This document shows, piece by piece, positions 9,765 through 39,377 of a DNA stretch of 39,711 nucleotides; positions within the stretch are counted from its first letter, which is position 1; each line of letters starts with the position of its first letter. The DNA is from Candidatus Woesearchaeota archaeon. GTDB lineage: Archaea; Nanobdellota; Nanobdellia; Pacearchaeales; GW2011-AR1. The stretch lies in NCBI GenBank assembly GCA_964354995.1, contig CAYHBQ010000002.1:1-39711 (forward strand). The letters are read 5' to 3'. Made by a program: the position numbers and the translations under genes. The notes under the pieces were generated by a model. That model was not told where the DNA came from. It searched no databases and worked only from the letters and a program-made list of their open reading frames with translations.

Positions 9765-10204
9765 ACATTCCCTATTACATACAGGAAAAAGAATGGTATT
9801 GCGGGCCCGCAGTCATGCAAATGGCTCTCGCAGCGTGTGGAATAAAGAAGACACAAGGGCAATTGGCAAAGGCACTAGGTACAAAAAATGATAACATTGG
9901 TACAAAAAACAGCGCAATGGTCGCCGTGGCAAAACAATACGGGCTCTTAGAAACTTCAAAAGAGAAGAAGTCGATTAAAGAACTAACAAAATATCTTGCT
10001 ACAGGGAAAATCATAATTGTAAGTCATTTTTATGAACCGGACCAAACAGGACATTTCGCAGTTGTGAAAAAAATAACGAAAAAAGCCATTATTCTCTTAG
10101 ACCCTGAAGCAGGGCCCAGCAAAACCTACTCATTCGCCAACTTTAAAAAAATATGGCACGATAACGAGGGAACCCGCGGTTGGTTTCTCGTGATAAAACG
10201 CTAA
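9761..10204 (+). CDS. Stand-alone peptidase C39-like (papain-fold Cys peptidase) domain protein
   Basis: IPYYIQEKEWYCGPAVMQMALAACG (Gln...Cys), TGHFAVVKK (His) and ILLDPEAG (Asp-Pro). No signal peptide and no ABC-transporter domain. Its ATG overlaps the polB stop (ATGA at 9761-9764). Confidence 0.65.
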   Translation: MNIPYYIQEKEWYCGPAVMQMALAACGIKKTQGQLAKALGTKNDNIGTKNSAMVAVAKQYGLLETSKEKKSIKELTKYLATGKIIIVSHFYEPDQTGHFAVVKKITKKAIILLDPEAGPSKTYSFANFKKIWHDNEGTRGWFLVIKR

Positions 10205-11786: not shown

Positions 11787-12143
11787 ATGATCCGAATAAA
11801 AAGTCAAAAGACCCCTTTCAACCTCTGGTGTAAGGAAGGAGATGCCGTCGTTCTTGTGCTCGGAGAGGAAACGGTACGCGTGAATACTCGACGCACCCCT
11901 GGAAAAAAAACACTGCTGACAATCGCACAAAGTTCGGGAATTAAGACCCTTGTAGATACAGAAGGAGTATATGTTGCAGAAACACAAAAGGGAGAGTACA
12001 TTGAACTAAAAGGGAAATATAGAGGGAAAAGAGATGACGGTTCTATCCCGTCAAACGATAGAGGCATCGAAATAAATGCGCCTTCTCAAACTGCAAGCTA
12101 TAAGTTTACATCAAGAGAATTCGCGGAAGCCAAAAAACGTTAA
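11787..12143 (+). CDS. Hypothetical protein (118 aa) with weak CsrA-like motifs
   Basis: ATG at 11787. GDAVVLVLGEETVRV and RGIEINAPSQ...SREF are reminiscent of CsrA (GD.V.V.VLG...VRIGI.AP...REE), but the match is weak. The 3' end overlaps the convergent 12140..12742 gene by 4 nt. Confidence 0.45.
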   Translation: MIRIKSQKTPFNLWCKEGDAVVLVLGEETVRVNTRRTPGKKTLLTIAQSSGIKTLVDTEGVYVAETQKGEYIELKGKYRGKRDDGSIPSNDRGIEINAPSQTASYKFTSREFAEAKKR

Positions 12144-12742
12144 CCTTTTTTAGAAATTACAATACAGTCTTCATCGGTGCCTAGACTTTTTCGTGCCCTA
12201 TCGAATAAGGCTCGTTCAATAGGAACAAATGCACGACCATCCTTCGGGCCAGGATTATGCACAAACACATTCCAATCGTCAAATCCCGCAATCGGCACGA
12301 AATGTCCTTGATACTCTGCAACGCCCATAACAACATGCCAATCCAGCAAAACTAACGCAAGAGAATCTTCCTGCACATGTGATAAAAGCTCGCCGAGAGA
12401 AAATGTCTTTTCAGCCAACACAACATGCGCTCTCCGTGCTTCTAAAACAAACGAAGCCATACGATCCTTCGTCATCGAAGAATATTTTTTATAAAAATCC
12501 ATTTCACGATAGGCAGGGTTCAACCCAAGCGATTTCGTAAAAAACTGAACTGAGAATCCCAACCGTGCCGCTGCCAGCGCCAGTTGTATTGTGTGAAGTC
12601 CCTTACCGAGTTCCATCCTCGCAGCATGTTCAATAACGCTCAATTCGGCAGGATTTCCAAAATACGCAAGAATCATCTGCAACGCCGCAGGCCCACAATT
12701 AGTCGTGCTTGTCTGCGGATAAAACGGCACCCCTAATTTCAT
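12140..12742 (-). CDS. Stand-alone peptidase C39-like domain protein (second copy)
   Basis: VPFYPQTSTTNCGPAALQMILAYFG (Gln...Cys), YQGHFVPIAGF (His) and VFVHNPGP. 200 aa with no signal peptide. ATG 12742 lies 4 nt downstream of the tRNA-Lys 3' end on the same strand. Confidence 0.65.
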   Translation of the reverse strand: MKLGVPFYPQTSTTNCGPAALQMILAYFGNPAELSVIEHAARMELGKGLHTIQLALAAARLGFSVQFFTKSLGLNPAYREMDFYKKYSSMTKDRMASFVLEARRAHVVLAEKTFSLGELLSHVQEDSLALVLLDWHVVMGVAEYQGHFVPIAGFDDWNVFVHNPGPKDGRAFVPIERALFDRARKSLGTDEDCIVISKKG

Positions 12743-12746
12743 AAAA

Positions 12747-12881
12747 TGACCCCGATGGGATTTGAACCCACGACACCTGGATTACTTCAACAAAGACTCA
12801 TCGCTCGTGTCTTTTTGAAGAACGACGAAGCGCACTTTGCCGTAAGAGTCCAGTACTCTGACCGGGCTGAGCTACGGGGCC
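12747..12881 (-). tRNA. tRNA-Lys (anticodon CUU) with a 60-nt intron at the canonical 37/38 position (intron 12783..12842)
   Basis: Hand fold of the reverse complement: acceptor GGCCCCG/CGGGGTC, D arm GCTC/GAGT, anticodon stem CTGGA/TCCAG, loop CTCTTA|intron|A, T arm GTGGG-TTCAAAT-CCCAT, discriminator A. No encoded CCA. A/T box gtttttaaac lies about 25 nt upstream. Confidence 0.85.
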
Positions 12882-24437: not shown

Positions 24438-24827
24438 TTAATCATTAACGTACACGAGACCATTAGAACGACGCAAAACGTTAGTCCCAGGGACAAACGT
24501 TCCCGTAACATTCTTAACAAGAACCGAAAGAGCCTGCGAACCATCGAGCGTATGAACGTAGAGCCGACCATCAACAACATCAAGTTCGTAGTCGAGATTA
24601 ACAATTTGCAGAGGTAGCTCAAATGTACGACTGTACCCATCAACAGTGGCATGGGCAAACGCCGTTTCTTCTTGTACCATGCGAGCAACCTGCTGAATAG
24701 TGAGCATCTGACGTTCATATAAACGATCTGAAGAAGAGAGCGCAATCGAAACCAAAAAGGCCACAAAAAAGAACAGAACAAACCCTGTAATAATCATAAA
24801 TTCAACAGAAGACTGTGCACGGTCCAT
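24438..24827 (-). CDS. Class III signal peptide (prepilin-like) protein, Gln(+1)/Glu(+5) type
   Basis: MDRA|QSSVEFMIITGFVLFFFVAFLVSIAL: short basic leader, A/G at -1, Q at +1, E at +5, then a hydrophobic helix of about 20 aa. Lies 2 nt downstream of the preceding prepilin gene. Confidence 0.7.
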   Translation of the reverse strand: MDRAQSSVEFMIITGFVLFFFVAFLVSIALSSSDRLYERQMLTIQQVARMVQEETAFAHATVDGYSRTFELPLQIVNLDYELDVVDGRLYVHTLDGSQALSVLVKNVTGTFVPGTNVLRRSNGLVYVND

Positions 24828-24829
24828 AG

Positions 24830-25279
24830 CTAGCCCTCTTGAATGAGGACGTGATCGTCCTGCGCAATCAATTGTATGCGTTTAACACCTTCGCTAGACG
24901 AAAGCGCCCCTTGTAGAGGAACAGCACTCGAGTAAGAAATAGTATTCGTCCCCGAACGAGAGGCTACCACAAAAAGAAGTTCATCCTCATCAACACTTAC
25001 ACTCGAAACGCCAGAAGGGAGGTATATGCGAAGAAGGATACGAGAAGGCTCTCCAGAATAGAAAACCTCTTCAGAGTTCGTAACAACTGTCTTTGCAAAC
25101 CGATTAAGATTGCTAAATCGTATCTGATCGCCAATACTTGCAGAATAAAAAAGCGCAACCCCCAAAAGTGCAACCACGAGGAGGGTTACAAATGAAACAA
25201 CGATAAGGTATTCAACACTAATTTGCGCTCTTCGTCCGTCGGGCATGGCTTCGGTAGGTTTATAAAATAAATCTGACAT
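24830..25279 (-). CDS. Class III signal peptide (prepilin-like) protein, Gln(+1)/Glu(+5) type
   Basis: ...MPDGRRA|QISVEYLIVVSFVTLLVVALLGVALFY. The ORF-track start at 25321 is TTG. In-frame ATGs occur at 25279 and 25246; the latter gives an 8-aa leader like the other prepilins, so the true start may be 25246. Confidence 0.7.
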   Translation of the reverse strand: MSDLFYKPTEAMPDGRRAQISVEYLIVVSFVTLLVVALLGVALFYSASIGDQIRFSNLNRFAKTVVTNSEEVFYSGEPSRILLRIYLPSGVSSVSVDEDELLFVVASRSGTNTISYSSAVPLQGALSSSEGVKRIQLIAQDDHVLIQEG

Positions 25280-25315
25280 CTTGATGTGAGGCGCGTATTT
25301 AAAAGTTAGTAGCCT

Positions 25316-25834
25316 ATGCAAAAAAGAGGAACAAATAAAGTTGTGAGTGTGTTAATAACGCTGGTTGTCACAGCTGCAGTCCTCCACACAGCCGCCCACT
25401 TCGCTATCTATGGTACGGGAATTCCAAATATTAACGAACAAGGTGTTTCTGGATTTGCAATCGGAAGCATAACGGGAGAGCAAATAAAGACAAATTACTC
25501 AAACGCCTCCTCAACATCAAAAGCGATTATTATAGGTGAATGGGCACTTCTAGTTATTCTTATTGTAATAAGTCTTGTCGGAGAACGTATGCACGTTAAA
25601 AAGCAGCACATCGCGCTTGAAATAAAAAAATCAACCGATAAATCAAAAACGGATATTGATGTATTGTACGACCTTCTTAAGGAAAAAAAGAAAATAGACT
25701 TGAGCACGATTGCTGAAACGTTTAAGATAAGTGAAGAAACCGCAACCGAGTGGGCAAAAATATTGGAAGAAGCTCAATTAGCAAGTCTGCACTATCCTCG
25801 ATTTGGCGAGGCCCAACTAAAAATAAAGGAGTAA
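25316..25834 (+). CDS. Membrane-tethered protein with C-terminal winged-helix-like domain, first gene of the pilus operon
   Basis: Two TM segments (VVSVLITLVVTAAVL, AIIIGEWALLVILIVISLVG), then DIDVLYDLLKEKKKIDLSTIAETFKISEETATEWAKILEE (HTH-like). Confidence 0.55.
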   Translation: MQKRGTNKVVSVLITLVVTAAVLHTAAHFAIYGTGIPNINEQGVSGFAIGSITGEQIKTNYSNASSTSKAIIIGEWALLVILIVISLVGERMHVKKQHIALEIKKSTDKSKTDIDVLYDLLKEKKKIDLSTIAETFKISEETATEWAKILEEAQLASLHYPRFGEAQLKIKE

Positions 25835-25837
25835 ACC

Positions 25838-27655
25838 ATGAACAAAAAAGAAAAAAACAAATACGCACAACATTTTGGATTACCTCCTATAAAGCCAGTC
25901 GCCCCAGCTCCTGCTCAGACAAGAACTCCTGAAAAAAGAAGAGAACAACCATCGCCTCCGCATGTGCACGAGAAGCATCACGTCAAAATAACAATGCACG
26001 AAAAAAAGAAAGAACATCATCAAAATGTGGCGCATGCTTCCGTGCATCAAAAACAACACGCGCATATCAAACCGCATATATCTCATGAGGTCCATGGCGC
26101 TAAAGCCCCGCATGTGCACGAACATCAAGAGCATCATGCACAAGTAGCCACACACGTAAAAAAAGAAGCAAGCGAAGTTGAAAGATATAACATCGAAATG
26201 GATAACACGCAAGTTACCGTAATTATACGAAAAACTCCTGAAGGAAACCTGTATGAACTCCAACTCCCCCAGATAAATGTAGCGACCGCCGCCCTTCTGA
26301 GAGACATGAGAAACGAACTTGTAACCCTTACTTCAGTAAGCATGAAAGAGCTCGTCGACCCTGAAGCGTTTTCCGCAATAAAGAAGCGGTTCACCGAAGA
26401 TGCACGAAAAATGTTAAAACAGAAACTACCGGGAATTGGTCAAGAAGTCGAAAGCTTTCTAGTTGGCGTACTTATTCAAGACATGTTGGGTCTCGGAAAA
26501 CTTGAGTTTCTCATAAACGATTCAGGATTGGAAGAGATTGTAGTGCCATCCGCTCGCGAGCCCGTACGCGTCTATAGCAAGAAATACGGATGGGTCGTAA
26601 CAAACATAACCATTGGTTCGGAAGAAGAAATTGTAAATTACGCCAATATTATCGCACGACGTGTGGGTAGACAGATAACGGTTCTCAATCCGTTGCTTGA
26701 CGCACACCTTATAACTGGCGACCGTATAAATGCGGTGCTCTATCCCATAAATACAAAAGGAAGCACAATTACCGTCAGAAAGTTTGCGCGTGACCCTTAC
26801 ACGATTATAGACTTCATAAACAATAAGACCTGCGACCTTGACACTGCCGCACTTATCTGGTTGGCCATAGAGTATGAAATGAACATTCTCATCTCGGGAG
26901 GCACCGGTTCAGGAAAAACATCTTTTTTGAACGCGTGTATGCCTTTCGTTCCACCCAACCATCGAATCATAAGCATTGAAGATACGCGAGAGCTCATGCT
27001 CCCAGAATATCTCTATTGGACCCCATTATCAACAAGAACACCGAATGCCGAAGGAAAAGGAGAGGTAAACATGCTCGACCTTCTCGTTAACTCGTTAAGA
27101 ATGCGTCCCGACAGAATCATATTAGGGGAAATGAGAAAACATGAAGAGGCAATGGTCCTCTTTGAAGCAATGCACACAGGGCACTCGGTGTATGCAACCG
27201 TGCACGCTGACTCGGCTCCTGAAACCGTCTCTCGCCTCATTAATCCCCCACTCAATATTCCCGCCAACCTCCTGCGTGCAGTACACCTCAATGTAGTCAT
27301 GTTTAGAGACAGAAGACGAGGAATACGTCGTATTCTGCAAATAGCAGAATTTGAAGCAGAAAAAGACACGGCACATGCAAATATTATTTACAGATGGTCT
27401 GCAGAAGAAGACAAAATAGTGAAACATAGTGAAAGTTCACGGTTCTTTGAAAACGTTGCACGTTCAACAGGCATGTCTTCGAAAGAAATGGACGCGGACT
27501 TGGAAGAAAAAAAGAGAATACTCGCATGGGTAGGGAAAAACAATATGCGTAATATTCAACAAGTAGGAAGAGTAATGAATGTTTATTACAAAAACAAGGA
27601 GCTCCTCAAAGAAGCGCTGGCAAAGAACAACCCTTCCCTTATCCAAAACGAGTAA
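25838..27655 (+). CDS. Type IV pilus/secretion ATPase (FlaI/TadA/VirB11 superfamily) with His-rich N-terminal extension
   Basis: Walker A GGTGSGKTSFLNA, IISIEDTRELMLP, Walker B RPDRIILGEMR, His box TGHSVYATVHA. N-terminal residues 42-106 contain 20 His by hand count. AAAGGAG lies 7 nt upstream of the ATG. Confidence 0.9.
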   Translation: MNKKEKNKYAQHFGLPPIKPVAPAPAQTRTPEKRREQPSPPHVHEKHHVKITMHEKKKEHHQNVAHASVHQKQHAHIKPHISHEVHGAKAPHVHEHQEHHAQVATHVKKEASEVERYNIEMDNTQVTVIIRKTPEGNLYELQLPQINVATAALLRDMRNELVTLTSVSMKELVDPEAFSAIKKRFTEDARKMLKQKLPGIGQEVESFLVGVLIQDMLGLGKLEFLINDSGLEEIVVPSAREPVRVYSKKYGWVVTNITIGSEEEIVNYANIIARRVGRQITVLNPLLDAHLITGDRINAVLYPINTKGSTITVRKFARDPYTIIDFINNKTCDLDTAALIWLAIEYEMNILISGGTGSGKTSFLNACMPFVPPNHRIISIEDTRELMLPEYLYWTPLSTRTPNAEGKGEVNMLDLLVNSLRMRPDRIILGEMRKHEEAMVLFEAMHTGHSVYATVHADSAPETVSRLINPPLNIPANLLRAVHLNVVMFRDRRRGIRRILQIAEFEAEKDTAHANIIYRWSAEEDKIVKHSESSRFFENVARSTGMSSKEMDADLEEKKRILAWVGKNNMRNIQQVGRVMNVYYKNKELLKEALAKNNPSLIQNE

Positions 27656-28536
27656 TGGCATTCAAAATACCCTTCACCCGTGGTCCGCTTGAGAAGTTAA
27701 AAAAGAGAGCAGCTTTCGCTTCTTCGCTTATTTCAAGAAAAAAGGACACGTCACTCGCAGAGATTCTAAAGAACAACGAAATACCCCTTACCCGGGAAGA
27801 ATACTTAGGTATATGTGCAACAACAGGTATAAAAAATTTAGTTATAATCTCAATTATAGCGACGACAGGTTTACTGTTAATTGGAACAAGCAAGTTCTGG
27901 CTTTACGGAATTGGATTCGGATTGATGATTTCCTTATTCACCTTTGGACTCCAACAAGCATACCCGTTCATTTACCAAACAAGACGACAAAAGAATATAG
28001 AGCGAAATCTCATACCTGCCTTAGAAGACATAATGGTGCAACTAAATGCAGGCGTACCGCTCTTTAGCATATTAGTAAACATATCTTCTTCAGATTATGG
28101 TGAACTAAGCAATGAATTTAAGAAAGCGGTAAAAAAGATGAATGCGGGCGTGCCTCAAACAGAAGCACTAGACGACCTTGGAAGGAACAACCCTTCAGTA
28201 TACTTTAGAAGAACGCTCTGGCAAATAAGTAATGGTATGAAAGCAGGGAGCGATATTGTGATAGTCATCAAAGAAAGTATGAAGTCACTTAATCAAGAGC
28301 AAGTTCTGCAGATTCAAACGTACGGCAACAAACTAAACCCGCTTATCATGTTCTATATGCTTATATCGGTCATATTGCCCGCACTAGCGGTGACGTTTCT
28401 CACAATCCTTGCTTCGATGGTGAACCTCGATAAAGCAACGACACAGGGGTTATTCATTGGGGTATTCGTGCTTATTTTGATAATCCAAGTTATGTTCTTA
28501 GGCGTCATAAAATCGACCCGCCCCAGCTTGCTATGA
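27655..28536 (+). CDS. Pilus platform membrane protein, single T2SSF domain (TadB/TadC/EpdJ-K-like), half 1
   Basis: LEDIMVQLNAGVPLFSILVN...FKKAVKKMNAGVPQTEALDDL...LWQISNGMKAGSDI flanked by TM helices. Its ATG overlaps the ATPase stop (TAATG). Confidence 0.8.
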   Translation: MAFKIPFTRGPLEKLKKRAAFASSLISRKKDTSLAEILKNNEIPLTREEYLGICATTGIKNLVIISIIATTGLLLIGTSKFWLYGIGFGLMISLFTFGLQQAYPFIYQTRRQKNIERNLIPALEDIMVQLNAGVPLFSILVNISSSDYGELSNEFKKAVKKMNAGVPQTEALDDLGRNNPSVYFRRTLWQISNGMKAGSDIVIVIKESMKSLNQEQVLQIQTYGNKLNPLIMFYMLISVILPALAVTFLTILASMVNLDKATTQGLFIGVFVLILIIQVMFLGVIKSTRPSLL

Positions 28537-29447
28537 TACGAGACAACAGCGCCCAAGAAAAGAGCAAGAGATCGCGCCAGATAGTGTATCTGCTCGTGAT
28601 AGCCTCGATAATTATTGGAATTGGCGCGTATTACATAACCGGAAGTACAAAAACGTCATTGATAACCTTAGTCAGTTCCGTAACCATATTGGGTGTTTCT
28701 TATTACGCCAATGAAAAAATGATTCTTACGAAAAAAATAAAGAAGATGGAAGATGCATTCCCCGACTTCCTTGAGCTCATGGCAAGCAACTTGCGTGCCG
28801 GAATGACGATAGACAAGGCACTACTTGCAAGTTCACGCGAGGAATTTGCTCCGCTTGACCTTGAAATAATGAAGTTAGGTAAAGACATAGCAACAGGGAA
28901 AAACATTGAACGCGCACTTAAAGAAATGGCAGAACGCATTAATTCAGAGAAAATACGAAAAACACTTCTTGTTATAATCTCAGGTATAAAGGCGGGAGGC
29001 AACCTCGCAGCGCTGCTTGAAGAGACCGCAATCCACACGCGTGAAAGAGGATTTGTAGAAAAACGGGCCGCATCAAACGTACTCATGTATGTCATATTCA
29101 TATTCTTCGCACTTGCCGTTGGCGCCCCAGTACTCTTTGGACTATCCGCGGCATTAGTGCAAATAATAACCAACCTGCTTGCAACACTCCCGCCCATAGA
29201 AAGTGCAAATATACAAATGCCCTTCACGCTTACTCAAATATCAATATCAACCACATTTGTCACGTATTTTTCGCTAATATTTCTTATTATGACCAATGTT
29301 TTGGGTTCGTTGGTACTCGGTTCAGTTAGTAAAGGAGAAGAAAAAGCAGGCATAAAATACATTGCCCCATTAATCATTCTGAGTGTAAGCATATTTTTCA
29401 CTGTTAAACAAGTACTATTAACCTACTTTGCAGACTTTTTAGGGTAG
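28533..29447 (+). CDS. Pilus platform membrane protein, single T2SSF domain, half 2
   Basis: PDFLELMASNLRAGMTIDKALL...LGKDIATGKNIERALKEMA...ISGIKAGGNLAALLEE plus TM helices. ATGA overlap with the preceding gene. Confidence 0.8.
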   Translation: MIRDNSAQEKSKRSRQIVYLLVIASIIIGIGAYYITGSTKTSLITLVSSVTILGVSYYANEKMILTKKIKKMEDAFPDFLELMASNLRAGMTIDKALLASSREEFAPLDLEIMKLGKDIATGKNIERALKEMAERINSEKIRKTLLVIISGIKAGGNLAALLEETAIHTRERGFVEKRAASNVLMYVIFIFFALAVGAPVLFGLSAALVQIITNLLATLPPIESANIQMPFTLTQISISTTFVTYFSLIFLIMTNVLGSLVLGSVSKGEEKAGIKYIAPLIILSVSIFFTVKQVLLTYFADFLG

Positions 29448-29481: not shown

Positions 29482-30273
29482 ATGAAAAAGAGAGAGAAAA
29501 CAAAAAGAGTGAAACACAAGATTTATCATAAGAGCAAAGCGCATTCAAAAAGAGTAAAGCCGAAAAAAACCGAACGAGTGCCAACCGGAATCCCTAACTT
29601 CGATACGCTGATTGAAGGAGGATTTGAAAAAAATTCAACCAATTTGTTAATAGGGGGAGCGGGAAGTGGAAAATCAATTTTTGCCATTCAATTCCTAATG
29701 AAAGGAATCAAAGAAGGAGAACCAGGGCTATATATCACATTTGAAGAAACAAAGGAAGAGTTCTATGCAAACATGGCACGATTCGGATGGGACTTGCGAA
29801 AATATGAAAATGAGGGAATGTTTGTTTTCCTCGAATATACGCCCGAACGAGTAAAGACCATGCTTGAGGAAGGCGGAGGTGCAATTGAGAACATAATTCT
29901 CAAGGGCAAAATAGCCAGAGTAGTAATAGATAGCATAACGTCATTCGAACTACTCTTCGACAACGAGCTTGAAAAACGTGAAGCTGCTTTCGAATTATTT
30001 AATATGATAAGTAAGTGGAACTGTACCGCGGTCGTAACATTTGAAGCAAATATTCGCTCAAGCGATAAACCTGACACGCGTACCATGGAATTTGAAGCAG
30101 ACTCCATCATTGCATTTTACTTTATGCGAACAAAAAACGAAAGAAAACGATATTTAGAAGTGCTTAAAATGCGAGGGACAAAACACTCGACAAAGATATT
30201 TTCGTTTGAAATGACAAGAACGGGAATTGCACTCGGGAAAAAACCATTTACAGGGAAGATAGAAGCCTATTGA
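29482..30273 (+). CDS. KaiC/RecA-superfamily ATPase (FlaH/ArlH-like) with basic N-terminal tail
   Basis: GIPNFDTLIEGGFEKNSTNLLIGGAGSGKSIFAIQFLMKG...GLYITFEE...VVIDSITS. The first about 35 aa are K/R/H-rich. It has its own A/T box (29453-29462) about 25 nt upstream of the ATG. Confidence 0.8.
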   Translation: MKKREKTKRVKHKIYHKSKAHSKRVKPKKTERVPTGIPNFDTLIEGGFEKNSTNLLIGGAGSGKSIFAIQFLMKGIKEGEPGLYITFEETKEEFYANMARFGWDLRKYENEGMFVFLEYTPERVKTMLEEGGGAIENIILKGKIARVVIDSITSFELLFDNELEKREAAFELFNMISKWNCTAVVTFEANIRSSDKPDTRTMEFEADSIIAFYFMRTKNERKRYLEVLKMRGTKHSTKIFSFEMTRTGIALGKKPFTGKIEAY

Positions 30274-30309: not shown

Positions 30310-30795
30310 GTGGTGAAAAAGAGAGGGCAAGCATGGGGTATCGATGTAACACTTGCGGCAATGATATTTGTTGCAGGAATCGTCGTATTCTACTTATACA
30401 CAATTAACTATAAATCAGGAGAAGGTCTCGAAGTTGAAGAAGGGCGTTTTGAGGCAGGGCTCGTGGCTTCAAGCATCCTTTCAGAAGGTGCTCCTGAAGA
30501 CTGGGATCAAGACACGGTAAGCAAGATAGGCATCCTCACACAAGGTCAGATAAACGAAACGAAGTTAGCACGATTTTACAATCTCACCCAAACAGATTAC
30601 GAAAGAACCAGACAGTTATTTGGTATACGATACGACTATTTCGTAAGCCTCTCCGTTCCCCTTGTAATAGAAGGTTCTCTGCGAGAAGGAATAGGCAAAC
30701 AGCCAGACGAAAGCGCGGAAAACACATTAAAGTTAACAAGATTCACTAACTATCAAAACAAGCCAGTAACCATTGAGGTGCTCGCATGGAACTAA
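30310..30795 (+). CDS. Class III signal peptide (prepilin-like) protein
   Basis: MVKKRG|QAWGIDVTLAAMIFVAGIVVFYLY. GTG start (30310 or 30313), with no in-frame ATG upstream of the signal. A/T box at 30280-30289 is about 25 nt upstream. Confidence 0.6.
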   Translation: MVKKRGQAWGIDVTLAAMIFVAGIVVFYLYTINYKSGEGLEVEEGRFEAGLVASSILSEGAPEDWDQDTVSKIGILTQGQINETKLARFYNLTQTDYERTRQLFGIRYDYFVSLSVPLVIEGSLREGIGKQPDESAENTLKLTRFTNYQNKPVTIEVLAWN

Positions 30796-33700
30796 ACAAA
30801 AAGAGAGGGGTGTTTTTTAGCCTTGATGCAATCATTGCATTGGGAATTATTCTTTTAACAATTCTTCTCGCGTACCCTTTTCTCAACGAACCTAAACCAG
30901 AAACAGAATTACAATCAGATATCATACAATCACTTTCCTCACTTAAGATATATGAGTTAGATAGCGCGTATGCGCAAGGACTTATCGCAGATGGAAGCCT
31001 AATAGAAACCAACAAATCGGTTCTAGAAGCGCTTGGAGAGCTCTATGTAAAAAATGTAACCCAAGCGAAACTACTCGCAGAAGAAGTACTCAATGAACTT
31101 GAAACAAAAGAAAATATAGGGTTATGGTATGGAAACACGCTCCTCGCGTCAAAAAATAGTTCTGCCTACGAAAACGCGCAAAAAGTAGAAACCGCACGAC
31201 AGATAATAAGTGGAATTCAAGAAGGAGAAAGTGTGACTGGATTCTCTGCGAGAGCATTTTTACAAAGCAAACGACAAACTAAATATGCCTACATTGGAGG
31301 ATACGTCGGAGAAGGAAACCTTACAATTCCTCTCGAATTCAACGGAGTCGCACTGGGAGCAACACTTGAAGCAACAACAAGTACAAACTTTGACGTATAT
31401 ATTAATGATAATTTCGTAGGAAGTTATCAAAAATCTCCCTCGCAAACAGAACCTCAAAATTATACGCTTGGAGTAACATTCTTTCAAAATGGAACAAATA
31501 ATATAACCCTCCGAGCAGCAAATTTATCTGTTGCAGGAGGATTCGTCAAATTAGTCTATTTAAGTTCCGTTCAGTACAAGCAGCCTGTACGCTATCATTT
31601 TCCAGGAATAGAGGGGGTAGTAAACCTTTATGATGGATTCTACGTACCAGGGACGCTCACCGAACTCGCAATTTCACTGCATTACGACAGCGCATATACC
31701 TCCTTCCTCACCATCGGCAACACAACCGTTTTAAGTAATACCACGACGGGCGAGACTACGGTAATCCTGACAAATAGCGAGCTTAATGCGCTACTCGATT
31801 ATGACTCATTGAGCAATCGGTCAATACCGATACGATTCGGTTTAGAAAACCTCTCGCTTATAGGAGAAGGAATTAAAGATATAGATGTCGTGCTCATCAC
31901 CGATGTATCGGGCAGTATGGCTTGGAGAATGGATAATGACAACAACGGAATAACCAGAAGTTGCACCGACCCGCTTATTAACGACCCTTCAACAAGAAGG
32001 ATTAGTCTAGCAAAATGTTTAGACCGCGATTTCGTCGCAACTATCCTTAACAGCAGCGTGGGAAGCCGAGTCGCGCTCGTTTCATTCTCAGATGATGCAA
32101 ACAACTACGTAAGTTTAACTCACAATCAAACGCTACTTAATAATACCATTTTTTCATACAGTACAGGAGGTGCAACCTGCCTTTCGTGCGCCATAAATAG
32201 AGCATACCAAATTCTTGAAGCCGAAGGCGCGGCAAATCGTACAAAATTCATTATTGCAATGACCGATGGGGTAACCAACCGGCGAAGCACCGAAAGCTGT
32301 AACGATCTCTATGGATCAAGTGGTCCAACAAACGCCTATATACAGGGAAGCGGATTGAACGGACTTTTACTAAAAAGGAACGAGACGACAAAGATATGGG
32401 CCGCGTTACCTCCTCCTGCAAGTAACACGCTCAACGATATCGATTTGCTCAATGAAACCCTCGGATTTGCAGCGGGCGCGAATGGAAAAATACTGAAGTG
32501 GAATGGAAATGTATGGTCAAACGAAACGTCCCCTATCACATCAACACTCTATCGTGTAGATGTGTACAATGGAACCTACGCACTTGCCGTCGGTGCAAGC
32601 GGACGAGTGGTACGATGGAATGGTGCAAGCTGGTCAACATTAGCGACAATTTCAAACGCACCAACGATTTATGGGATAAACATGTATAATCACACCCTTA
32701 TTTTCGCCAGCGGAGCGCGTAGCGGTTCAGGACGCATATTCCGTTCATCCAATGGAGGACAATCATGGAGCGAAATAGAGAGTAGTACTACCGAATATCG
32801 CGCCGTAAAAATAATTAACGCGACCCGAGCATTCGCAGTTGGAAGCGGAGGAAGAATAATGCAATGGTCCTCAGGAAGCACCTGGTCACAAGTCAGTTCA
32901 GGCACTTCAGAGAATCTGTACGGAATAGACTCGTATAACCGCACAAGAGTCTTTGCAGTGGGAGGGAACAATGGCAAGTCAGTTGCAGTAAGTTACAATG
33001 GAGCAAGTTGGAGCTCATCCCTCAACACGGGAGGAGACTCGCTGCGAGACGTAGCAGTGCTCGATAACGCGGTCCGCGCAGTAGGTGAAGGAAGTACTAT
33101 CTATGAAAGAAATGCAACCGCCTGGACAAAAATATATACCGTGCCCCCCGCCTATGGAGGAATCAGCACGTCGGGAGTCTCATGCACTGCGGATTCAGAT
33201 AGTTGTACTGAAATAAACTCTTTTCCTGGTCTAAACGCAAACTACAGCTCATGTCGAGCACGAGAATTGATAAATGCGACTATTTATTCAGTCGGGTTCG
33301 GACCAATTGCAACGTGCGGATTCGCAAACCAATTACTACAATCCATCGCATTGTGCGGAAATGGTACATTTTATGCGAGTAGTGATGCGGAGGAACTAAG
33401 AGAGTTCTATGAGAGCATTGCGCAAGATCTTATTCGATTGTCGTACAGCGAGCAGACTGCAAAAACAGAAGGAAATATTTCAGCAAGGCTTTATCCGGAT
33501 TCTTATTTAGAGTTCAATTACACAGAAACCCCTACCCCCTACGGACTGTTGCTTTCATATGAAAAGTTATTCGATAATAGTACCTCTGCAACATTGAGTC
33601 TGCCAGGAAACGTAACCGTTCTAGACCTTAAAGCCCTTTCATATTCGGGTGCACGTTGGACATCACAGCTTGCAATCAATCAGCAAATAGTGTATAGTCT

Positions 33701-34193
33701 CGCTTCCTACGGGACGGATTTCACAAAACGTGGAGACCCCTTCCAAATACATATTCCTACTGAATATGTGGGACCACAAAATAATATCACGTTAGTTACC
33801 GGACTTTCGCCAACTAACACAAGTGAAGGCTCTCCCCACAACAAACTTGTATACACCTTGCTCAAGAACGCATCCGGATATTCGCCCATCGTTTCAGTTT
33901 CCGAGGGGTGCACCTGGACAATTGATTTTGACAGCGGAGCCAATCTTACAACACGCATTCCAGGAAACTATTCTGAAAGCAGCGTGTGCACATACCAAGC
34001 AACGGGTATTTCTTATAACAACAATGATGCAGCACAAGAAGCAGTTTATCGTTTATTCGATAGTCTTGACCTTAACAAAGATAATAGAGTGGATGTAGAA
34101 TTCACTGAAGACGATCTTGAAATAACCCTCACCGAAGTAACGGGAATCCCATTCACATGGTCGACGGAGGTGCAAGTACGCGCATGGCGCTAA
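30786..34193 (+). CDS. Giant TadG-like pilus-associated protein: class III signal, vWA domain interrupted by a six-repeat propeller-like module
   Basis: MELNKKRG|VFFSLDAIIALGIILLTILLAYPF. MIDAS DVSGSM (31902-31919), IIAMTDG (about 32250-32270), closing ATIYSVGFG...ELREFYESIA (about 33285-33430). Six repeats of (F/V)A(V/A)G..G.i..w.(g)..W(S/T) lie between about 32400 and 33140. 36 N-x-S/T sequons by hand count. Confidence 0.8.
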   Translation: MELNKKRGVFFSLDAIIALGIILLTILLAYPFLNEPKPETELQSDIIQSLSSLKIYELDSAYAQGLIADGSLIETNKSVLEALGELYVKNVTQAKLLAEEVLNELETKENIGLWYGNTLLASKNSSAYENAQKVETARQIISGIQEGESVTGFSARAFLQSKRQTKYAYIGGYVGEGNLTIPLEFNGVALGATLEATTSTNFDVYINDNFVGSYQKSPSQTEPQNYTLGVTFFQNGTNNITLRAANLSVAGGFVKLVYLSSVQYKQPVRYHFPGIEGVVNLYDGFYVPGTLTELAISLHYDSAYTSFLTIGNTTVLSNTTTGETTVILTNSELNALLDYDSLSNRSIPIRFGLENLSLIGEGIKDIDVVLITDVSGSMAWRMDNDNNGITRSCTDPLINDPSTRRISLAKCLDRDFVATILNSSVGSRVALVSFSDDANNYVSLTHNQTLLNNTIFSYSTGGATCLSCAINRAYQILEAEGAANRTKFIIAMTDGVTNRRSTESCNDLYGSSGPTNAYIQGSGLNGLLLKRNETTKIWAALPPPASNTLNDIDLLNETLGFAAGANGKILKWNGNVWSNETSPITSTLYRVDVYNGTYALAVGASGRVVRWNGASWSTLATISNAPTIYGINMYNHTLIFASGARSGSGRIFRSSNGGQSWSEIESSTTEYRAVKIINATRAFAVGSGGRIMQWSSGSTWSQVSSGTSENLYGIDSYNRTRVFAVGGNNGKSVAVSYNGASWSSSLNTGGDSLRDVAVLDNAVRAVGEGSTIYERNATAWTKIYTVPPAYGGISTSGVSCTADSDSCTEINSFPGLNANYSSCRARELINATIYSVGFGPIATCGFANQLLQSIALCGNGTFYASSDAEELREFYESIAQDLIRLSYSEQTAKTEGNISARLYPDSYLEFNYTETPTPYGLLLSYEKLFDNSTSATLSLPGNVTVLDLKALSYSGARWTSQLAINQQIVYSLASYGTDFTKRGDPFQIHIPTEYVGPQNNITLVTGLSPTNTSEGSPHNKLVYTLLKNASGYSPIVSVSEGCTWTIDFDSGANLTTRIPGNYSESSVCTYQATGISYNNNDAAQEAVYRLFDSLDLNKDNRVDVEFTEDDLEITLTEVTGIPFTWSTEVQVRAWR

Positions 34194-35113
34194 TACCTGA
34201 CAAGAGGGGATTCTTTTTTACAATACTTACGATAATAACGCTTTCCTTATTCCTTATAACCTATGGAATCTACAACGAATTTAAAGAACGTTCGTCAGAA
34301 CAGAAACGAGTAAAAACGCTTGATAGCTTCTTAAAAGCAACTGAAGCAGACCTCTCGCGTCAAGCATACATCATGGGTTTTAGGGCAATATTTATCATCG
34401 AAAGTGCAATAAGCGCATCGGGAAGTTATAGTTCAGATGTCAACGCACAGGTCAATGAGATAATACAAAATGGCACGTTGGGCGGAGTACCGCAACCACT
34501 CATGATTGGAGCAACGCTGCCCGAGATAAGTGCGTTCGCGAATGAAAAAGCATCCAAGCTCAACGCAGAACTAACACTCTCGCAACCGACAATACATGTT
34601 TTCCAACGCGACCCTTGGCAGGTAATTGTGCAAATAAATACGACCCTCGTTCTCAACGACAAAAACGATAAAGCTAATTGGACAATCAGCGAATCTATTG
34701 AAGCACCCCTAGAAATAGACAACTTCGAAGATCCACTTTATATTGTGAACACTAACGGTCTCGTAACCAACAAGATAACTCGAACACCCTATGAAGACTT
34801 CACACAGGGCACCGATGTAACCAATTTAATAGATCATGTAACAAACTCGTACTATACGGCAACGTCACTTGCGCCCAGTTTTATGCAAAGGCTTGAAGGA
34901 AACCTAACTCCAAGCGAAGAGGGCATAGAGTCGTTCGTGAACCTCCAAGAGCTCAGCAGTGTAGGTATGACGGTACAAGACAAAAGCGTCGTAGACCATG
35001 TATACTTTTCATCACAAAATCCTCTCGCTTATAGAATCCAAGGAATGCAGTCATGGTTCAAAATCGATGACGCTCATCTGCAAATTTATGGCGTCGAAGA
35101 GCTCATACTCTAA
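34184..35113 (+). CDS. Class III signal peptide (minor pilin-like) protein
   Basis: MALIPDKRG|FFFTILTIITLSLFLITYGIY. Start taken at ATG 34184, a 10-nt overlap with the preceding stop. Confidence 0.6.
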   Translation: MALIPDKRGFFFTILTIITLSLFLITYGIYNEFKERSSEQKRVKTLDSFLKATEADLSRQAYIMGFRAIFIIESAISASGSYSSDVNAQVNEIIQNGTLGGVPQPLMIGATLPEISAFANEKASKLNAELTLSQPTIHVFQRDPWQVIVQINTTLVLNDKNDKANWTISESIEAPLEIDNFEDPLYIVNTNGLVTNKITRTPYEDFTQGTDVTNLIDHVTNSYYTATSLAPSFMQRLEGNLTPSEEGIESFVNLQELSSVGMTVQDKSVVDHVYFSSQNPLAYRIQGMQSWFKIDDAHLQIYGVEELIL

Positions 35114-35170: not shown

Positions 35171-35177
35171 AAGGAGG
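35171..35177 (+). promoter_or_regulatory. Strong Shine-Dalgarno (aaggagg) 8 nt upstream of the major-pilin ATG; TATA gtttataaac at 35123-35132
   Basis: Among the genes checked, this one has the clearest UTR-plus-SD arrangement, whereas most are leaderless. Confidence 0.55.
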
Positions 35178-35185
35178 TGGAAACG

Positions 35186-35641
35186 ATGCACAAAAAAGGA
35201 CAAGCGGCGATGGAATTCTTGATGACCTATGGATGGGCCATTCTTGCAGCCATAATTGCGATTGGTGTTCTTGCATATTTCGGCGTATTCAGCCCAGGGA
35301 AGTACACTACTGGATCAACGGTCGTTAATCCTCCCTTCTATGCAAATTCATGGAACGTTCAAGCAGATGTAGCAGGAAGTTCCGGAATTATTCTCGAGCT
35401 CCGTAACAACGGAGGCGAAGACTTTGAAGTTCAGAGCATAGATGTTACAAATTGCGGAATATTCGCAACGCCAACAACTGTCGCGACAGGAGCGCTTCAA
35501 GCGTTCACCATTGACTGTACTGCGGGAGCATTGACTGAAGGAGATAGCTTCAAAGGAGATATCACCATCACCTATCTAAAAACAGGTAGTTCGGTTGTAT
35601 TAACCTCGACAGGAACAATCGCGGAAAAAGTCACGGCATAA
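35186..35641 (+). CDS. Candidate major pilin (class III signal, Gln+1/Glu+5, DUF361/EppA-substrate-like)
   Basis: MHKKG|QAAMEFLMTYGWAILAAIIAIGVLAYFG. Small (151 aa), with its own TATA, a strong SD and a T-rich terminator. The ORF-track start at 35177 is the GTG inside the SD. Confidence 0.8.
   Translation: MHKKGQAAMEFLMTYGWAILAAIIAIGVLAYFGVFSPGKYTTGSTVVNPPFYANSWNVQADVAGSSGIILELRNNGGEDFEVQSIDVTNCGIFATPTTVATGALQAFTIDCTAGALTEGDSFKGDITITYLKTGSSVVLTSTGTIAEKVTA
35195..35229. repeat. 35-nt exact repeat, copy 1 (prepilin signal-coding segment)
   Basis: aaaggacaagcggcgatggaattcttgatgaccta is identical at 35195-35229 and 36202-36236. Confidence 0.9.
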
Positions 35642-35771: not shown

Positions 35772-35933
35772 GATCGCGTAGCTCAGCCTGGTTAGAGCAC
35801 CGCTCTGATACCGTAGCTTCGAAAGAAGCGAGGCGCCACGGACCAAAGTCTGTGTCGACGGGAACTTCAGCAAAAGTTTCCGCACAAAACGTCAGTGAGG
35901 CGGGGGTCCCATGTTCAAATCATGGCGCGATCA
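35772..35933 (+). tRNA. tRNA-Ile (anticodon GAU) with an 87-nt intron at 37/38 (intron 35811..35897)
   Basis: Hand fold: acceptor GATCGCG/CGCGATC, D arm GCTC/GAGC, anticodon stem CCGCT/GGCGG (one U-G pair), loop CTGATA|intron|A, T arm CCATG-TTCAAAT-CATGG, discriminator A. The intron contains a GCTTC-GAAA-GAAGC hairpin. Confidence 0.8.
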
Positions 35934-35985: not shown

Positions 35986-37098
35986 ATGAAATTAAGAGGG
36001 GAAGTTATCTATAGACGCATACACCTCCTCCTAGGAGTGATATTTTTAGGAGCCTCTCTGGTATTTTTAACGCACTCATTACCTTCCATAACCGGATTCA
36101 GCGTCATAGAAAATATAGGGATCCAAAAAAACTCGCTTGTGGGAAGCGTGTGTCTACTGAACGCAGCGCTTATGTTCCGTCTCGCTACCCGAAACGCAAG
36201 CAAAGGACAAGCGGCGATGGAATTCTTGATGACCTACGGTTGGACTATTCTTGCAGTAATCATTGTCATGGGTGTAGTAGGATATTACTCCTTCTTTAAT
36301 ACGGATAGGTTGCTTCCTGACAGTACGCTCCTAGGCCCCCCCTTCTACGGAGTTGCAGGGAGTGCAGACGAAGATAGCGTTAATTTTGGCATTCGCAACA
36401 ACGGCGACCAAAGTTACACAGTCACTGGAGTCACGGTGCCTGGATGTGGCACTTATACCGATTCATTCACCGTCGCGAGAGGCGCAACTGTCGATCTTTC
36501 AGTGCAATGCGATGAAAATCTCAATCCCGACGATAGATTTGATGGCGACGTAACAATAAACTATCGCTCATCAGGAAGTACCGTAGACAAAACGGCCTCG
36601 GGATCAATTGGTACCCGCGTACAATCAGGAACAGGAACACAATTCTCTCCCCCTCTAGATTCAGGAGATGGCGGTCAACAAAACCCTGATCAAGACGGAG
36701 ACGGAATAACCGATGCATTAGACAACTGCCCTGCAATAGCAAACCCTGCCCAGACCGATAGCGATGGAGATGGAACAGGAGATGCCTGCGATGCTCAAAC
36801 GTGTGGCAATAATATACAAGAAGGGACAGAGATTTGTGATGGTACGGACATAAATGGAGAGTCCTGCACAGGATCCGGAGTCTGCCCTATAACGCTCGCC
36901 TGTCCTTATGAGGGAGGAACACTCGCGTGTGCACTAGACTGTACACAATATAATACAAATCAATGCACGCCCACGCAGTGCAGCGATGGATTAGACAACG
37001 ACTTAGATGGAAAGATAGACTACGGACAAGACACTGAATGCGACAATCAATCAGATGATCAAGAACTAAAAGCGATTGGACCAGGTGGCGCCGTATAA
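35986..37098 (+). CDS. Pilin paralogue with N-terminal 2-TM pro-region, internal class III site and C-terminal TSP3 / Cys-rich modules
   Basis: Residues 73-: KG|QAAMEFLMTYGWTILAVIIVMGVVGYY, and the pilin body is homologous to 35186..35641 (PPFY, RNNG, F.GD(I/V)TI.Y..GS). C-terminus: DQDGDGITDALDNCPAIANPAQTDSDGDGTGDACD (TSP type-3 repeats, about 36685-36795), CGNNIQEGTEICDG and CSDGLDNDLDGKIDYGQDTECD. TATA at 35950-35959 lies about 30 nt upstream of ATG 35986. An alternative ATG at 36172 has no A/T box. Confidence 0.75.
   Translation: MKLRGEVIYRRIHLLLGVIFLGASLVFLTHSLPSITGFSVIENIGIQKNSLVGSVCLLNAALMFRLATRNASKGQAAMEFLMTYGWTILAVIIVMGVVGYYSFFNTDRLLPDSTLLGPPFYGVAGSADEDSVNFGIRNNGDQSYTVTGVTVPGCGTYTDSFTVARGATVDLSVQCDENLNPDDRFDGDVTINYRSSGSTVDKTASGSIGTRVQSGTGTQFSPPLDSGDGGQQNPDQDGDGITDALDNCPAIANPAQTDSDGDGTGDACDAQTCGNNIQEGTEICDGTDINGESCTGSGVCPITLACPYEGGTLACALDCTQYNTNQCTPTQCSDGLDNDLDGKIDYGQDTECDNQSDDQELKAIGPGGAV
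36202..36236. repeat. 35-nt exact repeat, copy 2 (prepilin signal-coding segment)
   Basis: Identical to 35195-35229. Confidence 0.9.
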
Positions 37099-39160: not shown

Positions 39161-39194
39161 CTTTCTTTAAAGAAAAAACGATTAATAAAACTAA

Positions 39195-39268
39195 TGGGGC
39201 CGCCCGGATTCGCACCGGGGTCGCGAACCCCCGAAGCTCGAAGGCTAACTAAACTACCCCACGGCCCC
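39195..39268 (-). tRNA. tRNA-Pro (anticodon CGG), no intron
   Basis: Hand fold of the reverse complement: acceptor GGGGCCG/CGGCCCC, D arm GGGT/GCCT, anticodon stem CGAGC/GTTCG, loop TTCGGGG, T arm CCCGG-TGCGAAT-CCGGG, discriminator A. A/T box gtttataat lies about 25 nt upstream. Confidence 0.85.
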
Positions 39269-39377
39269 ATACACAACGTACCTTAAAGCGCATTATAAAC
39301 CTAACGCAGTTCGGTACCCTTTAAACGTCCATGATAGAAGAAGCATTTTTAAAGAGCCCTTGTCTAAGGGAAGAGAG

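Follow-up and report, generated by a model that had tools for sequence, protein, structure and literature searches.

A life in attachment to other cells is presumed for DPANN archaea, and the molecules by which they make contact are largely uncharacterized. In other systems, pili are known to carry adhesins with a von Willebrand factor A (vWA) domain. PilY1/PilC of type IVa pili contains a vWA domain, a seven-bladed propeller, and an EF-hand-like calcium loop; PilB of Streptococcus sanguinis is a type IV pilin module fused to a vWA adhesion module with a metal ion-dependent adhesion site (MIDAS); and RrgA is another streptococcal vWA pilus adhesin, which carries an insert. Here we describe a gene in a 39,711-nucleotide stretch of DNA from a Candidatus Woesearchaeota archaeon (contig CAYHBQ010000002.1, positions 1 to 39,711; called the window below) that encodes a pilin-like protein of 1,135 residues with a vWA domain and a propeller. 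We hold with moderate confidence that this protein belongs to an archaeal type IV pilus of the Epd-like kind, of which it is the large adhesin subunit, glycosylated and MIDAS dependent, with an exchangeable head. Pilus-borne vWA adhesins as such are known; what is noteworthy here is a complete propeller that is predicted to be nested inside the vWA domain, together with the exchange of heads throughout the family.

The domain set of the archaeal protein is that of PilY1/PilC, which is involved in adhesion and is found with minor pilins at the pilus tip, as is proposed for the archaeal protein. In PilY1, however, the vWA domain and the propeller follow one another, at the N and C termini, and are not nested, and PilY1 is not pilin-like itself. 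The propellers differ as well, the insert described here being of the Ycf48/BNR type, and the Pfam family of PilC/PilY1 gave no match in the vWA/propeller protein. PilB shares with it a pilin N terminus and a vWA domain, but PilB is bacterial, is much smaller, and has no nested domain, jelly-roll stalk, or C-terminal module. The integrin α chain also joins a MIDAS-bearing vWA domain and a seven-bladed propeller by insertion into one adhesion head. There the topology is inverted, with the αI/vWA domain inside the propeller, and the propeller is of another type; no evolutionary link is implied.

The gene and the parts of its product are the following (AlphaFold2 and Foldseek refer to the structural model described below).
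30786..34193, + strand: gene of the pilin-like vWA/propeller protein, 1,135 aa, stop codon included (open reading frame list; 36 full-length homologues, 41-73% identical)
30786..30884, + strand: predicted class III (archaeal prepilin-type) signal peptide, with leader MELNKKRG (residues 1-8) and hydrophobic helix VFFSLDAIIALGIILLTILLAYPFL (residues 9-33)
30909..31844, + strand: N-module, a helical stalk (residues 42-103) and β-rich domains like jelly rolls or carbohydrate-binding modules (CBMs) (residues 110-353) (AlphaFold2, Foldseek)
31872..32300, + strand: N-terminal part of the vWA domain, β1-α1-β2-β3-α2-α3-β4, residues 363-505 (Pfam VWA_2/VWA, AlphaFold2)
31902-31916, 32175-32177, and 32265-32267, + strand: MIDAS residues D373, S375, and S377; T464; and D494 (DxSxS...T...D)
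32301..33161, + strand: inserted Ycf48/BNR-type β-propeller, residues 506-792, with blades 506-546, 547-586, 587-625, 626-669, 670-709, 710-751, and 752-792 (AlphaFold2, Foldseek, PSII_BNR, repeat alignment)
33162..33443, + strand: return linker with a cysteine (residues 793-812) and C-terminal part of the vWA domain, α4-β5-α5-β6-α6 (AlphaFold2, spliced Pfam match)
33444..34190, + strand: C-module, β-rich, residues 887-1135 (strands 900-1134) (AlphaFold2)
34068-34094, + strand: EF-hand-like loop D1095-x-[DN]-x-[ND]-x-x-x-D1103, following a helix (conserved in 106-119 of 120 homologues)

An initial annotation, made from the DNA letters alone, had reported the 1,135-aa open reading frame, and both the reading frame and the eleven peptides it quoted were found where it had placed them. 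Its vWA domain with an intact MIDAS is borne out. Two Pfam families match above their gathering scores (GA), VWA_2 (PF13519) with 43.3 bits (GA, 27; E, 6e-11) and VWA (PF00092) with 40.3 bits (GA, 23.8; E, 5e-10). The motifs DVSGSM (residues 373-378, 31902-31919) and IIAMTDG (residues 489-495, 32250-32270) lie in the first half of the domain. A protein search gave 347 relatives, of which the best 120 were analyzed, and 114-119 of these 120 retain each of D373, S375, S377, T464, and D494. An AlphaFold2 model based on a 78-sequence alignment of the family has a mean predicted local distance difference test score (pLDDT) of 89.6 over the whole protein. It predicts β1 at residues 366-373, α1 at 405-423, β2 at 428-434, β3 at 440-445, α2 at 448-456, α3 at 466-480, and β4 at 486-493. 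After the insert, the fold resumes with α4 at 813-829, β5 at 831-838, α5 at 845-857, β6 at 862-865, and α6 at 868-885; the closing elements that the initial annotation had pointed to, ATIYSVGFG (residues 831-839) and AEELREFYESIAQDL (residues 868-882), are located in this part. The elements of both halves are modeled mostly with pLDDT above 90 and in the canonical α/β Rossmann-like order of strands and helices. The PF00092 match by itself covers profile positions 33-117; when residues 506-805 are spliced out in silico, it grows to positions 33-173/174 and 50.8 bits. The insert begins 12 residues past D494, directly after the near-invariant C505, and ends directly before α4, which holds the near-invariant C823.

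From the AlphaFold2 model, the insert is predicted to form a closed propeller of seven four-stranded blades, and its 28 strands (508-783; pLDDT 93-98) lie between β4 and α4. The initial annotation had described six repeats of the Ycf48/BNR type inside the vWA domain. The type and the nesting are supported by the strand order of the model, by Foldseek, and by the spliced Pfam match, and all six repeats are present (starting at residues 559, 598, 638, 681, 721, and 762; span, 559-781). The number of blades was too low by one because blade 1 (residues 506-546), AYIQGSGLNGLLLKRNETTKIWAAL, had been overlooked; this blade aligns with the six other repeats, and the modeled strands, the Foldseek matches, and the repeat alignment all overturn the count of six in favor of seven. 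The model thus contains a vWA fold and a propeller, with the propeller inside the vWA domain, and it was the lack of any of these that the initial annotation had named beforehand as speaking against its reading. In a Foldseek search of the PDB, seven-bladed propellers came out on top. A designed seven-bladed protein had a TM-score on target of 0.81, and Ycf48 entries were found with E values of ~5e-12 to 9e-10, TM-scores on target of 0.66-0.71, and identities of 13-15%. Pfam PSII_BNR (PF14870; GA, 27) scores 28.6 bits with the insert alone and 21.7 bits with the full protein. The insert resembles Ycf48/HCF136 (PF14870) in being a seven-bladed propeller, but it is an extracellular module in a nonphotosynthetic organism, and at the identity given above the NCBIfam Ycf48 equivalog NF010237 reaches only 27.3 bits against a cutoff of 326, which does not indicate orthology to the photosystem II assembly factor. 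The nearest relatives of the propeller outside the family are PF14870-type propellers with 23-35% identity, several of which also match domains of bacterial secreted or surface proteins (Big_2 and the WxL cell-wall-binding domain); a further domain in these relatives is presumably the Por secretion tail. A recent horizontal acquisition of the propeller was considered. Its GC content, 0.48, is above that of the window, 0.43, but at third codon positions the GC content is not deviant, and a clear signal of transfer is therefore lacking.

Solved structures were searched with a family profile from which the propeller columns drop out. The closest vWA domains are those of a BatA-like membrane protein (4rck; 1e-11) and of Porphyromonas gingivalis Mfa5 (6tnj; 5e-11), a minor fimbrium subunit. 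A further match (8e-7) is a cell-wall-anchored surface protein of a streptococcus (3tw0/3tvy), which we take to be the GBS104 pilus adhesin. In Mfa5, ~100 extra residues follow the SDG strand, which is the same point, and there is thus a precedent for vWA adhesins of pili that carry an insert on this loop. Mfa5 and the streptococcal adhesins are, like the proposed adhesin, MIDAS dependent and displayed on pili. Their inserts, however, are arms or loops, their pili are bacterial and either type V or sortase assembled, and they have no class III signal peptide. A propeller in the β4-α4 loop is an unusual case of domain insertion. The solved structures in this search have only arm- or loop-sized inserts, and we know of no precedent for a whole seven-bladed propeller nested in this loop of a vWA domain.

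The scaffold of the family is very constant in length, with a leader and helix of ~40 aa, an N-module of ~325 aa, the vWA domain, and a C-module of ~250 aa, whereas the inserts vary. The propeller (~290 aa) is found at the β4-α4 site in 36 of the 120 proteins, in most of the others (810-890 aa) just a short loop takes its place, and members of a third group, with lengths of 1000-1106 aa (in genome loci, up to 1497 aa), have their insert at a different site of the vWA domain. This second site (site A) lies approximately in the α3-β4 loop, from position ~90 to ~102 of PF00092, and its inserts contain modules of the types Laminin_G_3/ConA-like lectin, sialidase-like CBM, and DUF4215. The largest member, of 1497 aa (L055, 6007-10500), has an insert of ~670-700 aa at the α3-β4 site, in which no Pfam domain was detected. 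When we classified the 166 members with recognizable anchor motifs, 110 had no insert, 29 had one at site A, and 27 had the propeller at the β4-α4 site (site B); none had both. The insertion point that the initial annotation had singled out is thus kept in the propeller-bearing members but not in the others, which have no insert or have it elsewhere. A rough neighbor-joining tree (788 scaffold columns, with bootstrap resamplings) implies 3-6 gains or losses of the propeller and 8-10 changes for the site-A inserts, which are scattered. A single origin of the insert was not upheld by this tree, in which the propeller proteins form one clade mostly but not strictly. The propeller is one of several alternative inserts and not a constant part of the family, and the existence of relatives without an insert, or with lectin-type modules at the second site, suggests that the head is an exchangeable module. 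The family is also large. When 1.84 billion representatives were searched with a profile of the N-module, 430 clusters (50% identity) matched at E<=1e-30. The matching proteins are up to 1727 aa long, and the match invariably covers residues ~35-365. We found no prior description of this vWA-scaffold family, an absence that is weakly supported because the literature search was incomplete. DPANN pili have been proposed as mediators of cell-cell contact (PMC9938205; PMC6642349), and neither paper mentions the family.

About 335 N-terminal and 270 C-terminal residues had been left unassigned in the initial annotation, and this has to be corrected, as both are conserved family modules with predicted folds. 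The N-module has no Pfam match. Foldseek relates its model to the carbohydrate-binding domains of BcsB, to GH2 sugar-binding jelly rolls, and to CBM36/CBM29 (E values of 1e-5 to 1e-3), and weak profile matches to the jelly roll of sialate O-acetylesterase agree with this; a sequence search of the PDB with the full protein gave only a marginal jelly-roll match. For the C-module, the sequence-profile search gave no solved relative. A match to Tctex dynein light chain (E, 0.006) was judged spurious, and a duplication that would relate the two modules to each other was rejected (hhalign probability, 0.2%). The conserved EF-hand-like loop, together with a weak match of the C-module to Pfam EF-hand_5 (E, 0.07), suggests that the C-module probably has a Ca2+ site. 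This loop recalls the calcium switch of PilY1, a calcium site that tunes PilY1 function.

The count of 36 N-x-S/T sequons in the initial annotation is exact (with x not P). Shuffles that preserve composition give 17.1±3.6 sequons, with a maximum of 29 in 2000, and the cytoplasmic neighbors (the ATPase and the KaiC-like protein) show no excess. The excess is shared by the family, whose members have a median of 28 sequons and, compared with shuffles, a median z-score of 4.0. Conservation of position is frequent. N124, N178, N312, and N1011, for instance, are sequons in more than 100 of the 120 members, and one sequon occurs at the same place in blades 2-6 in at least 27 of the 36 propeller-bearing members. 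We rejected a composition artifact because the shuffles retain the composition and yet give about half of the observed number; the conservation of the positions across the family speaks against it as well. Judged by its sequons, the exposed protein is probably heavily N-glycosylated, in the archaeal manner.

The pilin-type anchor that had been proposed for the N terminus is present. In the stretch KKRGVFFSLDAIIALGIILL (residues 5-24), the basic leader passes into a hydrophobic helix, and the whole follows the class III pattern, with a short leader, a [KR]-[GA] motif, and the helix (MELNKKRG/VFFSLDAIIALGIILLTILLAYPF; here and below, a slash separates the leader from what follows). The motif [KR][GA]-xFF[ST]xDA[LI]IA is kept among the members of the vWA family, the AlphaFold2 model has a transmembrane helix at residues 13-33, and cleavage is predicted after G8. 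Class III-like N termini occur in four extracytoplasmic families of the locus. Besides the vWA family, these are a family of 161-aa proteins ([KR][GA]/Q[AIV]W[GS]xDL), a family of ~310-aa proteins ([KR][GA]/xxFT), and the pilins (KG/QAAMEFLMTYGWAILAA). A 282-aa open reading frame without a Pfam match (6541-7389, - strand), distant from the pilus operon, has an N terminus, GKRA/VFFLGLLFVVVGAFF, similar to the class III pattern seen in the vWA family.

The genes around the vWA/propeller gene are the following.
24438-24827, - strand: divergent small pilin-like gene, 129 aa, RAQ/SSVEFMII (N-terminal sequence)
24830-25321, - strand: divergent small pilin-like gene, 163 aa, RRAQ/ISVEYLIV (N-terminal sequence)
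25316-25834, + strand: winged helix-turn-helix regulator (Pfam/NCBIfam)
25838-27655, + strand: FlaI/TadA-type ATPase (T2SSE) (Pfam/NCBIfam)
27655-28536 and 28533-29447, + strand: two platform genes with one T2SSF domain each (Pfam/NCBIfam)
29482-30273, + strand: KaiC/FlaH-like ATPase (Pfam/NCBIfam)
30310..30795, + strand: upstream partner, 161 aa, class III signal peptide (KKRG/QAWGIDV); its end overlaps the start of the vWA gene by 10 nt
34157..35113, + strand: downstream partner, 318-aa open reading frame, class III signal peptide (DKRG/FFFTIL); overlaps the end of the vWA gene
35177-35641, + strand: putative major pilin, 154 aa, KKG/QAAMEFLMTYGWAIL (N-terminal motif)
35986-37098, + strand: pilin paralogue with thrombospondin type 3 (Ca-binding) repeats and a Cys-rich acidic tail (Pfam, N-terminal motif)

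Two of these genes seem to start later than listed. The 318-aa open reading frame begins where the vWA gene has not yet ended (34157-34193 of the window), in a conserved 3' region, and the seeming conservation of its N-terminal extension (MVNRG..M) in orthologues is explained by overlap with the conserved sequence that codes, in another frame, for TWSTEVQVRxW. The likely start of the downstream partner is the ATG at 34184 (MALIPDKRG), which gives ~309 aa and translational coupling. The pilin paralogue probably starts at 36172 (MFRLATRNASKG/QAAMEF), so that the 62-residue extension of the listed reading frame would not be translated. The two divergent genes have Epd/DUF361-like class III signal peptides and probably encode further minor pilins; their place in L001, a syntenic locus, is taken by genes of 130 and 138 aa. 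An 85-nt repeat (84% identical) covers the signal-peptide regions of both pilins (35195-35279 and 36202-36286). We considered whether a diversity-generating retroelement or another repeat-mediated mechanism produces variation here. No reverse transcriptase or pair of template and variable repeats was found in the window, the only repeats being this one, due to the paralogy of the pilin signal peptides, and the pair of AAA domains in Cdc48, and the idea was dropped.

The arrangement is conserved. Open reading frames were called for 83 related loci, and the proteins of the window served as queries against them. In nearly all of them, the 161-aa, vWA, and ~310-aa genes form a triad of abutting or overlapping genes. 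The block of regulator, ATPase, two platform genes, and KaiC-like gene adjoins the triad, either co-directional or divergent, and a pilin of the 154-aa type usually follows; in a few loci, for example L002 and L031, the triad is apart from the ATPase genes. Four loci have tandem copies of the vWA-scaffold gene, flanked by the 161-aa and ~310-aa partners (L051, 5998-11983; L068, 5908-12049; L077, 3667-10949; L078, 1867-8010). One of these pairs was typed, that of L051, and it consists of an insert-free copy of 820 aa and a copy of 1172 aa with Laminin_G_3.

The initial annotation had called the protein TadG-like. Epd-like archaeal pili and bacterial Tad share two contiguous platform genes with a single T2SSF domain each and a secondary ATPase, FlaH or TadZ, and Denise et al. 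2019 (PMC6668835), who define both by these traits, conclude that bacterial Tad was transferred from an Epd-like archaeal system, its archaeal sister. The locus described here has two such contiguous platform genes together with an ATPase and a FlaH-like secondary ATPase. Because of these Epd-like hallmarks, the label is a fair analogy, as the operon type is the sister or source of Tad, but the protein is archaeal and has no match to the N-terminal families of TadE/TadG (PF07811/PF13400-type; searched with the whole protein at E<=0.01 and with residues 1-100 at E<=10). Like TadG, it has a hydrophobic pilin-like N-terminal segment followed by a vWA domain, two small pseudopilin-like genes accompany it (TadE/TadF in the one case, the 161-aa and ~309-aa partners in the other), and the two single-domain platform genes and the secondary ATPase are common to both loci. 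On the other hand, the archaeal locus has no secretin (RcpA), TadZ, or TadV and uses a KaiC/FlaH-like ATPase instead. The vWA/propeller protein is also much larger than TadG, with its jelly-roll N-module, its C-module, and the nested propeller, and in the vWA domain the likeness seen is that of the generic fold. For archaeal pili, Makarova et al. 2016 (PMC4858521) describe vWA proteins only as cytoplasmic ArnB-type regulators and cite TadG as the bacterial case.

The host is a DPANN archaeon of the Nanoarchaeota/Woesearchaeota lineage and not a bacterium with a Tad system; the archaeal taxonomy and the absent TadE/TadG N-terminal match rule out the bacterial reading. The markers in the window are archaeal, namely FEN1, a family B DNA polymerase (PolB), Cdc48, ribosomal protein L15e, and an enzyme of the TYW2/Trm5 type. 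A scan of one genome per species gave 228 relatives of the vWA protein, and the nearest copy, 91% identical, is in the Nanoarchaeota metagenome-assembled genome H43-bin084_1. The best 80 of the 228 loci come, with one exception, from metagenome-assembled genomes labeled Nanoarchaeota, Woesearchaeota, Pacearchaeota, Nanoarchaeia, or "archaeon." The exception is L039 (MNXB01000016.1), a 5-kb contig labeled "Elusimicrobia" with a triad of 161, 1086, and 309 aa, as in L040 (Pacearchaeota UBA92). Since the three lengths equal those of the Pacearchaeota contig, L039 is probably a mis-binned archaeal contig. Elsewhere in the window, proteins like peptidase C39 or guanylyl cyclase (PF09778) are encoded at 9761-10204 (+ strand) and 12140-12742 (- strand), in a DPANN chromosomal setting, and the 147-aa open reading frame among them starts with MNIPYYIQEKEWYCGPAV, which resembles the motif of C39-type papain-like peptidases. 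The tRNA genes found with Rfam, which also count among the archaeal features of the window, are the following; ARAGORN misses both and reports only a tRNA-Pro at 39194-39269.
12747-12881, - strand: tRNA gene, 135 nt, presumably intron-containing
35772-35933, + strand: tRNA gene, 162 nt, presumably intron-containing, between the two pilin genes

How could such a protein work? With its class III signal peptide, the vWA protein would be coexpressed with the 161-aa partner upstream and the ~309-aa partner downstream, both pilin-like. The three most likely form a priming or tip complex that would be assembled by the FlaI-like ATPase and the split platform before the major pilins. Because such a complex would be assembled ahead of the major pilins, the vWA protein would come to lie at the distal end of the filament, with its N-terminal helix within the filament core. 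The stalk of jelly-roll-like domains would then carry the head, the vWA domain with its complete MIDAS metal site. The propeller may provide a second or a modified binding surface, and since it is inserted in the loop right after the MIDAS aspartate (β4-α4), it would be placed on or beside the ligand-binding face. The exchangeable head would act as a specificity module, plausibly tuned to the surface of a host cell or of a substrate of these small symbionts, and the exposed part of the protein would probably be heavily N-glycosylated. The adhesin reading proposed in the initial annotation is reasonable. By analogy, it is favored by closest vWA domains that include pilus and fimbrial adhesins, by alternative inserts of a carbohydrate-binding type, by the CBM/jelly-roll-like N-module, and by tandem paralogues with different heads.

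The single N-terminal transmembrane helix and the large ectodomain would also suit a membrane-anchored surface protein outside the filament, with a helix that is not cleaved or not extracted. Such a protein could anchor or stabilize the pilus base, as hypothesized for TadG, or act as a short-range adhesin or co-receptor, and the few loci with the triad away from the ATPase genes (L002/L031) would fit. We consider this unlikely, as the conserved [KR][GA]/hydrophobic N terminus is shared with the neighboring pilin-like genes, the tight translational coupling to two small pilin-like partners is typical of minor-pilin tip or priming complexes, and variable lectin-type heads are more sensible at a distal tip. 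The core operon position, which is universally conserved, the EF-hand-like loop of the C-module, and the PilY1 domain set of vWA plus propeller could instead point to an assembly or regulatory factor, with a PilY1-like role in priming, anti-retraction, or surface sensing and with the vWA domain and the Ca-binding loop controlling filament dynamics. A PilT-like retraction ATPase was not seen in the locus, and the fast turnover of lectin-type heads suggests selection on ligand specificity and not on assembly. We give this role only a small chance, and it is in any case compatible with an adhesin, the two not being mutually exclusive.

A filament as such is questioned by the possibility of a type II secretion-like pseudopilus or a bindosome-like structure, in which the vWA protein would capture substrates at the surface or take part in their uptake. 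The ATPase does match the model of BasE, the bindosome assembly ATPase (2e-37), and CBM or lectin-type modules could bind soluble or polymeric glycans. However, the FlaI and TadA models far outscore BasE, the short pilins of the locus with their highly conserved Epd-type N termini fit a real filament, and substrate-binding proteins or transporters were not found adjacent to it, which makes this explanation very improbable. Finally, the propeller could be catalytic, a BNR/sialidase- or GH74-like glycosidase, and the protein a surface enzyme. Its blades contain degenerate Asp-box-like motifs (S-x-N-G-x-x-W), and there is a weak match to the F510_1955 family glycosylhydrolase (E, 0.003; 16.8 bits against a cutoff of 175). 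Yet the best matches are noncatalytic Ycf48-type propellers, no glycosidase family reached its threshold, and most orthologues have no propeller at all; a surface enzyme is hardly credible.

Several observations weigh against the pilus-tip adhesin that we favor. The predicted TM-score of the AlphaFold2 model is only 0.59, the N-module modeled alone has a pLDDT of 72.7, poorer than within the full protein, and its Foldseek matches have low TM-scores. The N terminus of the vWA protein does not match PF04021 (Class_IIIsignal), the 154-aa pilin matches it only with an E value of 1.1, and a search of the window gave no gene for a prepilin peptidase (peptidase A24). Sequons are absent from the putative major pilin. 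That the propeller loop (β4-α4) lies on the MIDAS face is taken from the canonical vWA topology, and a globular subunit of 1,135 aa would fit only at the end of a filament or on the cell surface.

A bolder version of the adhesin reading combines several claims. The family would be a host- or surface-recognition device of the episymbionts among Nanoarchaeota, Woesearchaeota, and Pacearchaeota, a pilus-tip adhesin with a fixed scaffold and two insertion hot spots in the vWA domain that take up whole autonomous domains (the seven-bladed propeller, a ConA-like lectin, or a sialidase-type CBM), and the inserted head would decide the attachment partner. The propeller within the vWA domain would be an "inside-out integrin" in which the MIDAS and the propeller face form one composite site, and the family would be the archaeal ancestor of bacterial TadG. 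Taken jointly, these claims are doubtful, and we offer them only tentatively.

Instead of a bacterial TadG, the protein is better described as an archaeal vWA adhesin with a class III signal, belonging to an Epd-like pilus of DPANN archaea. It adds an archaeal case to a recurrent theme, the use of vWA adhesins by pili of four types that are unrelated or distantly related. A large uncharacterized family (at least 430 clusters at 50% identity) is now defined as a fixed part of the main pilus operon of DPANN archaea, and a confident predicted architecture is available for it. Its evolutionarily exchangeable head, which likely binds a ligand, is a concrete candidate for a determinant of host specificity. 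The head is a defined fragment (residues 363-886), and the type of head could be matched to co-occurring hosts in metagenomes.

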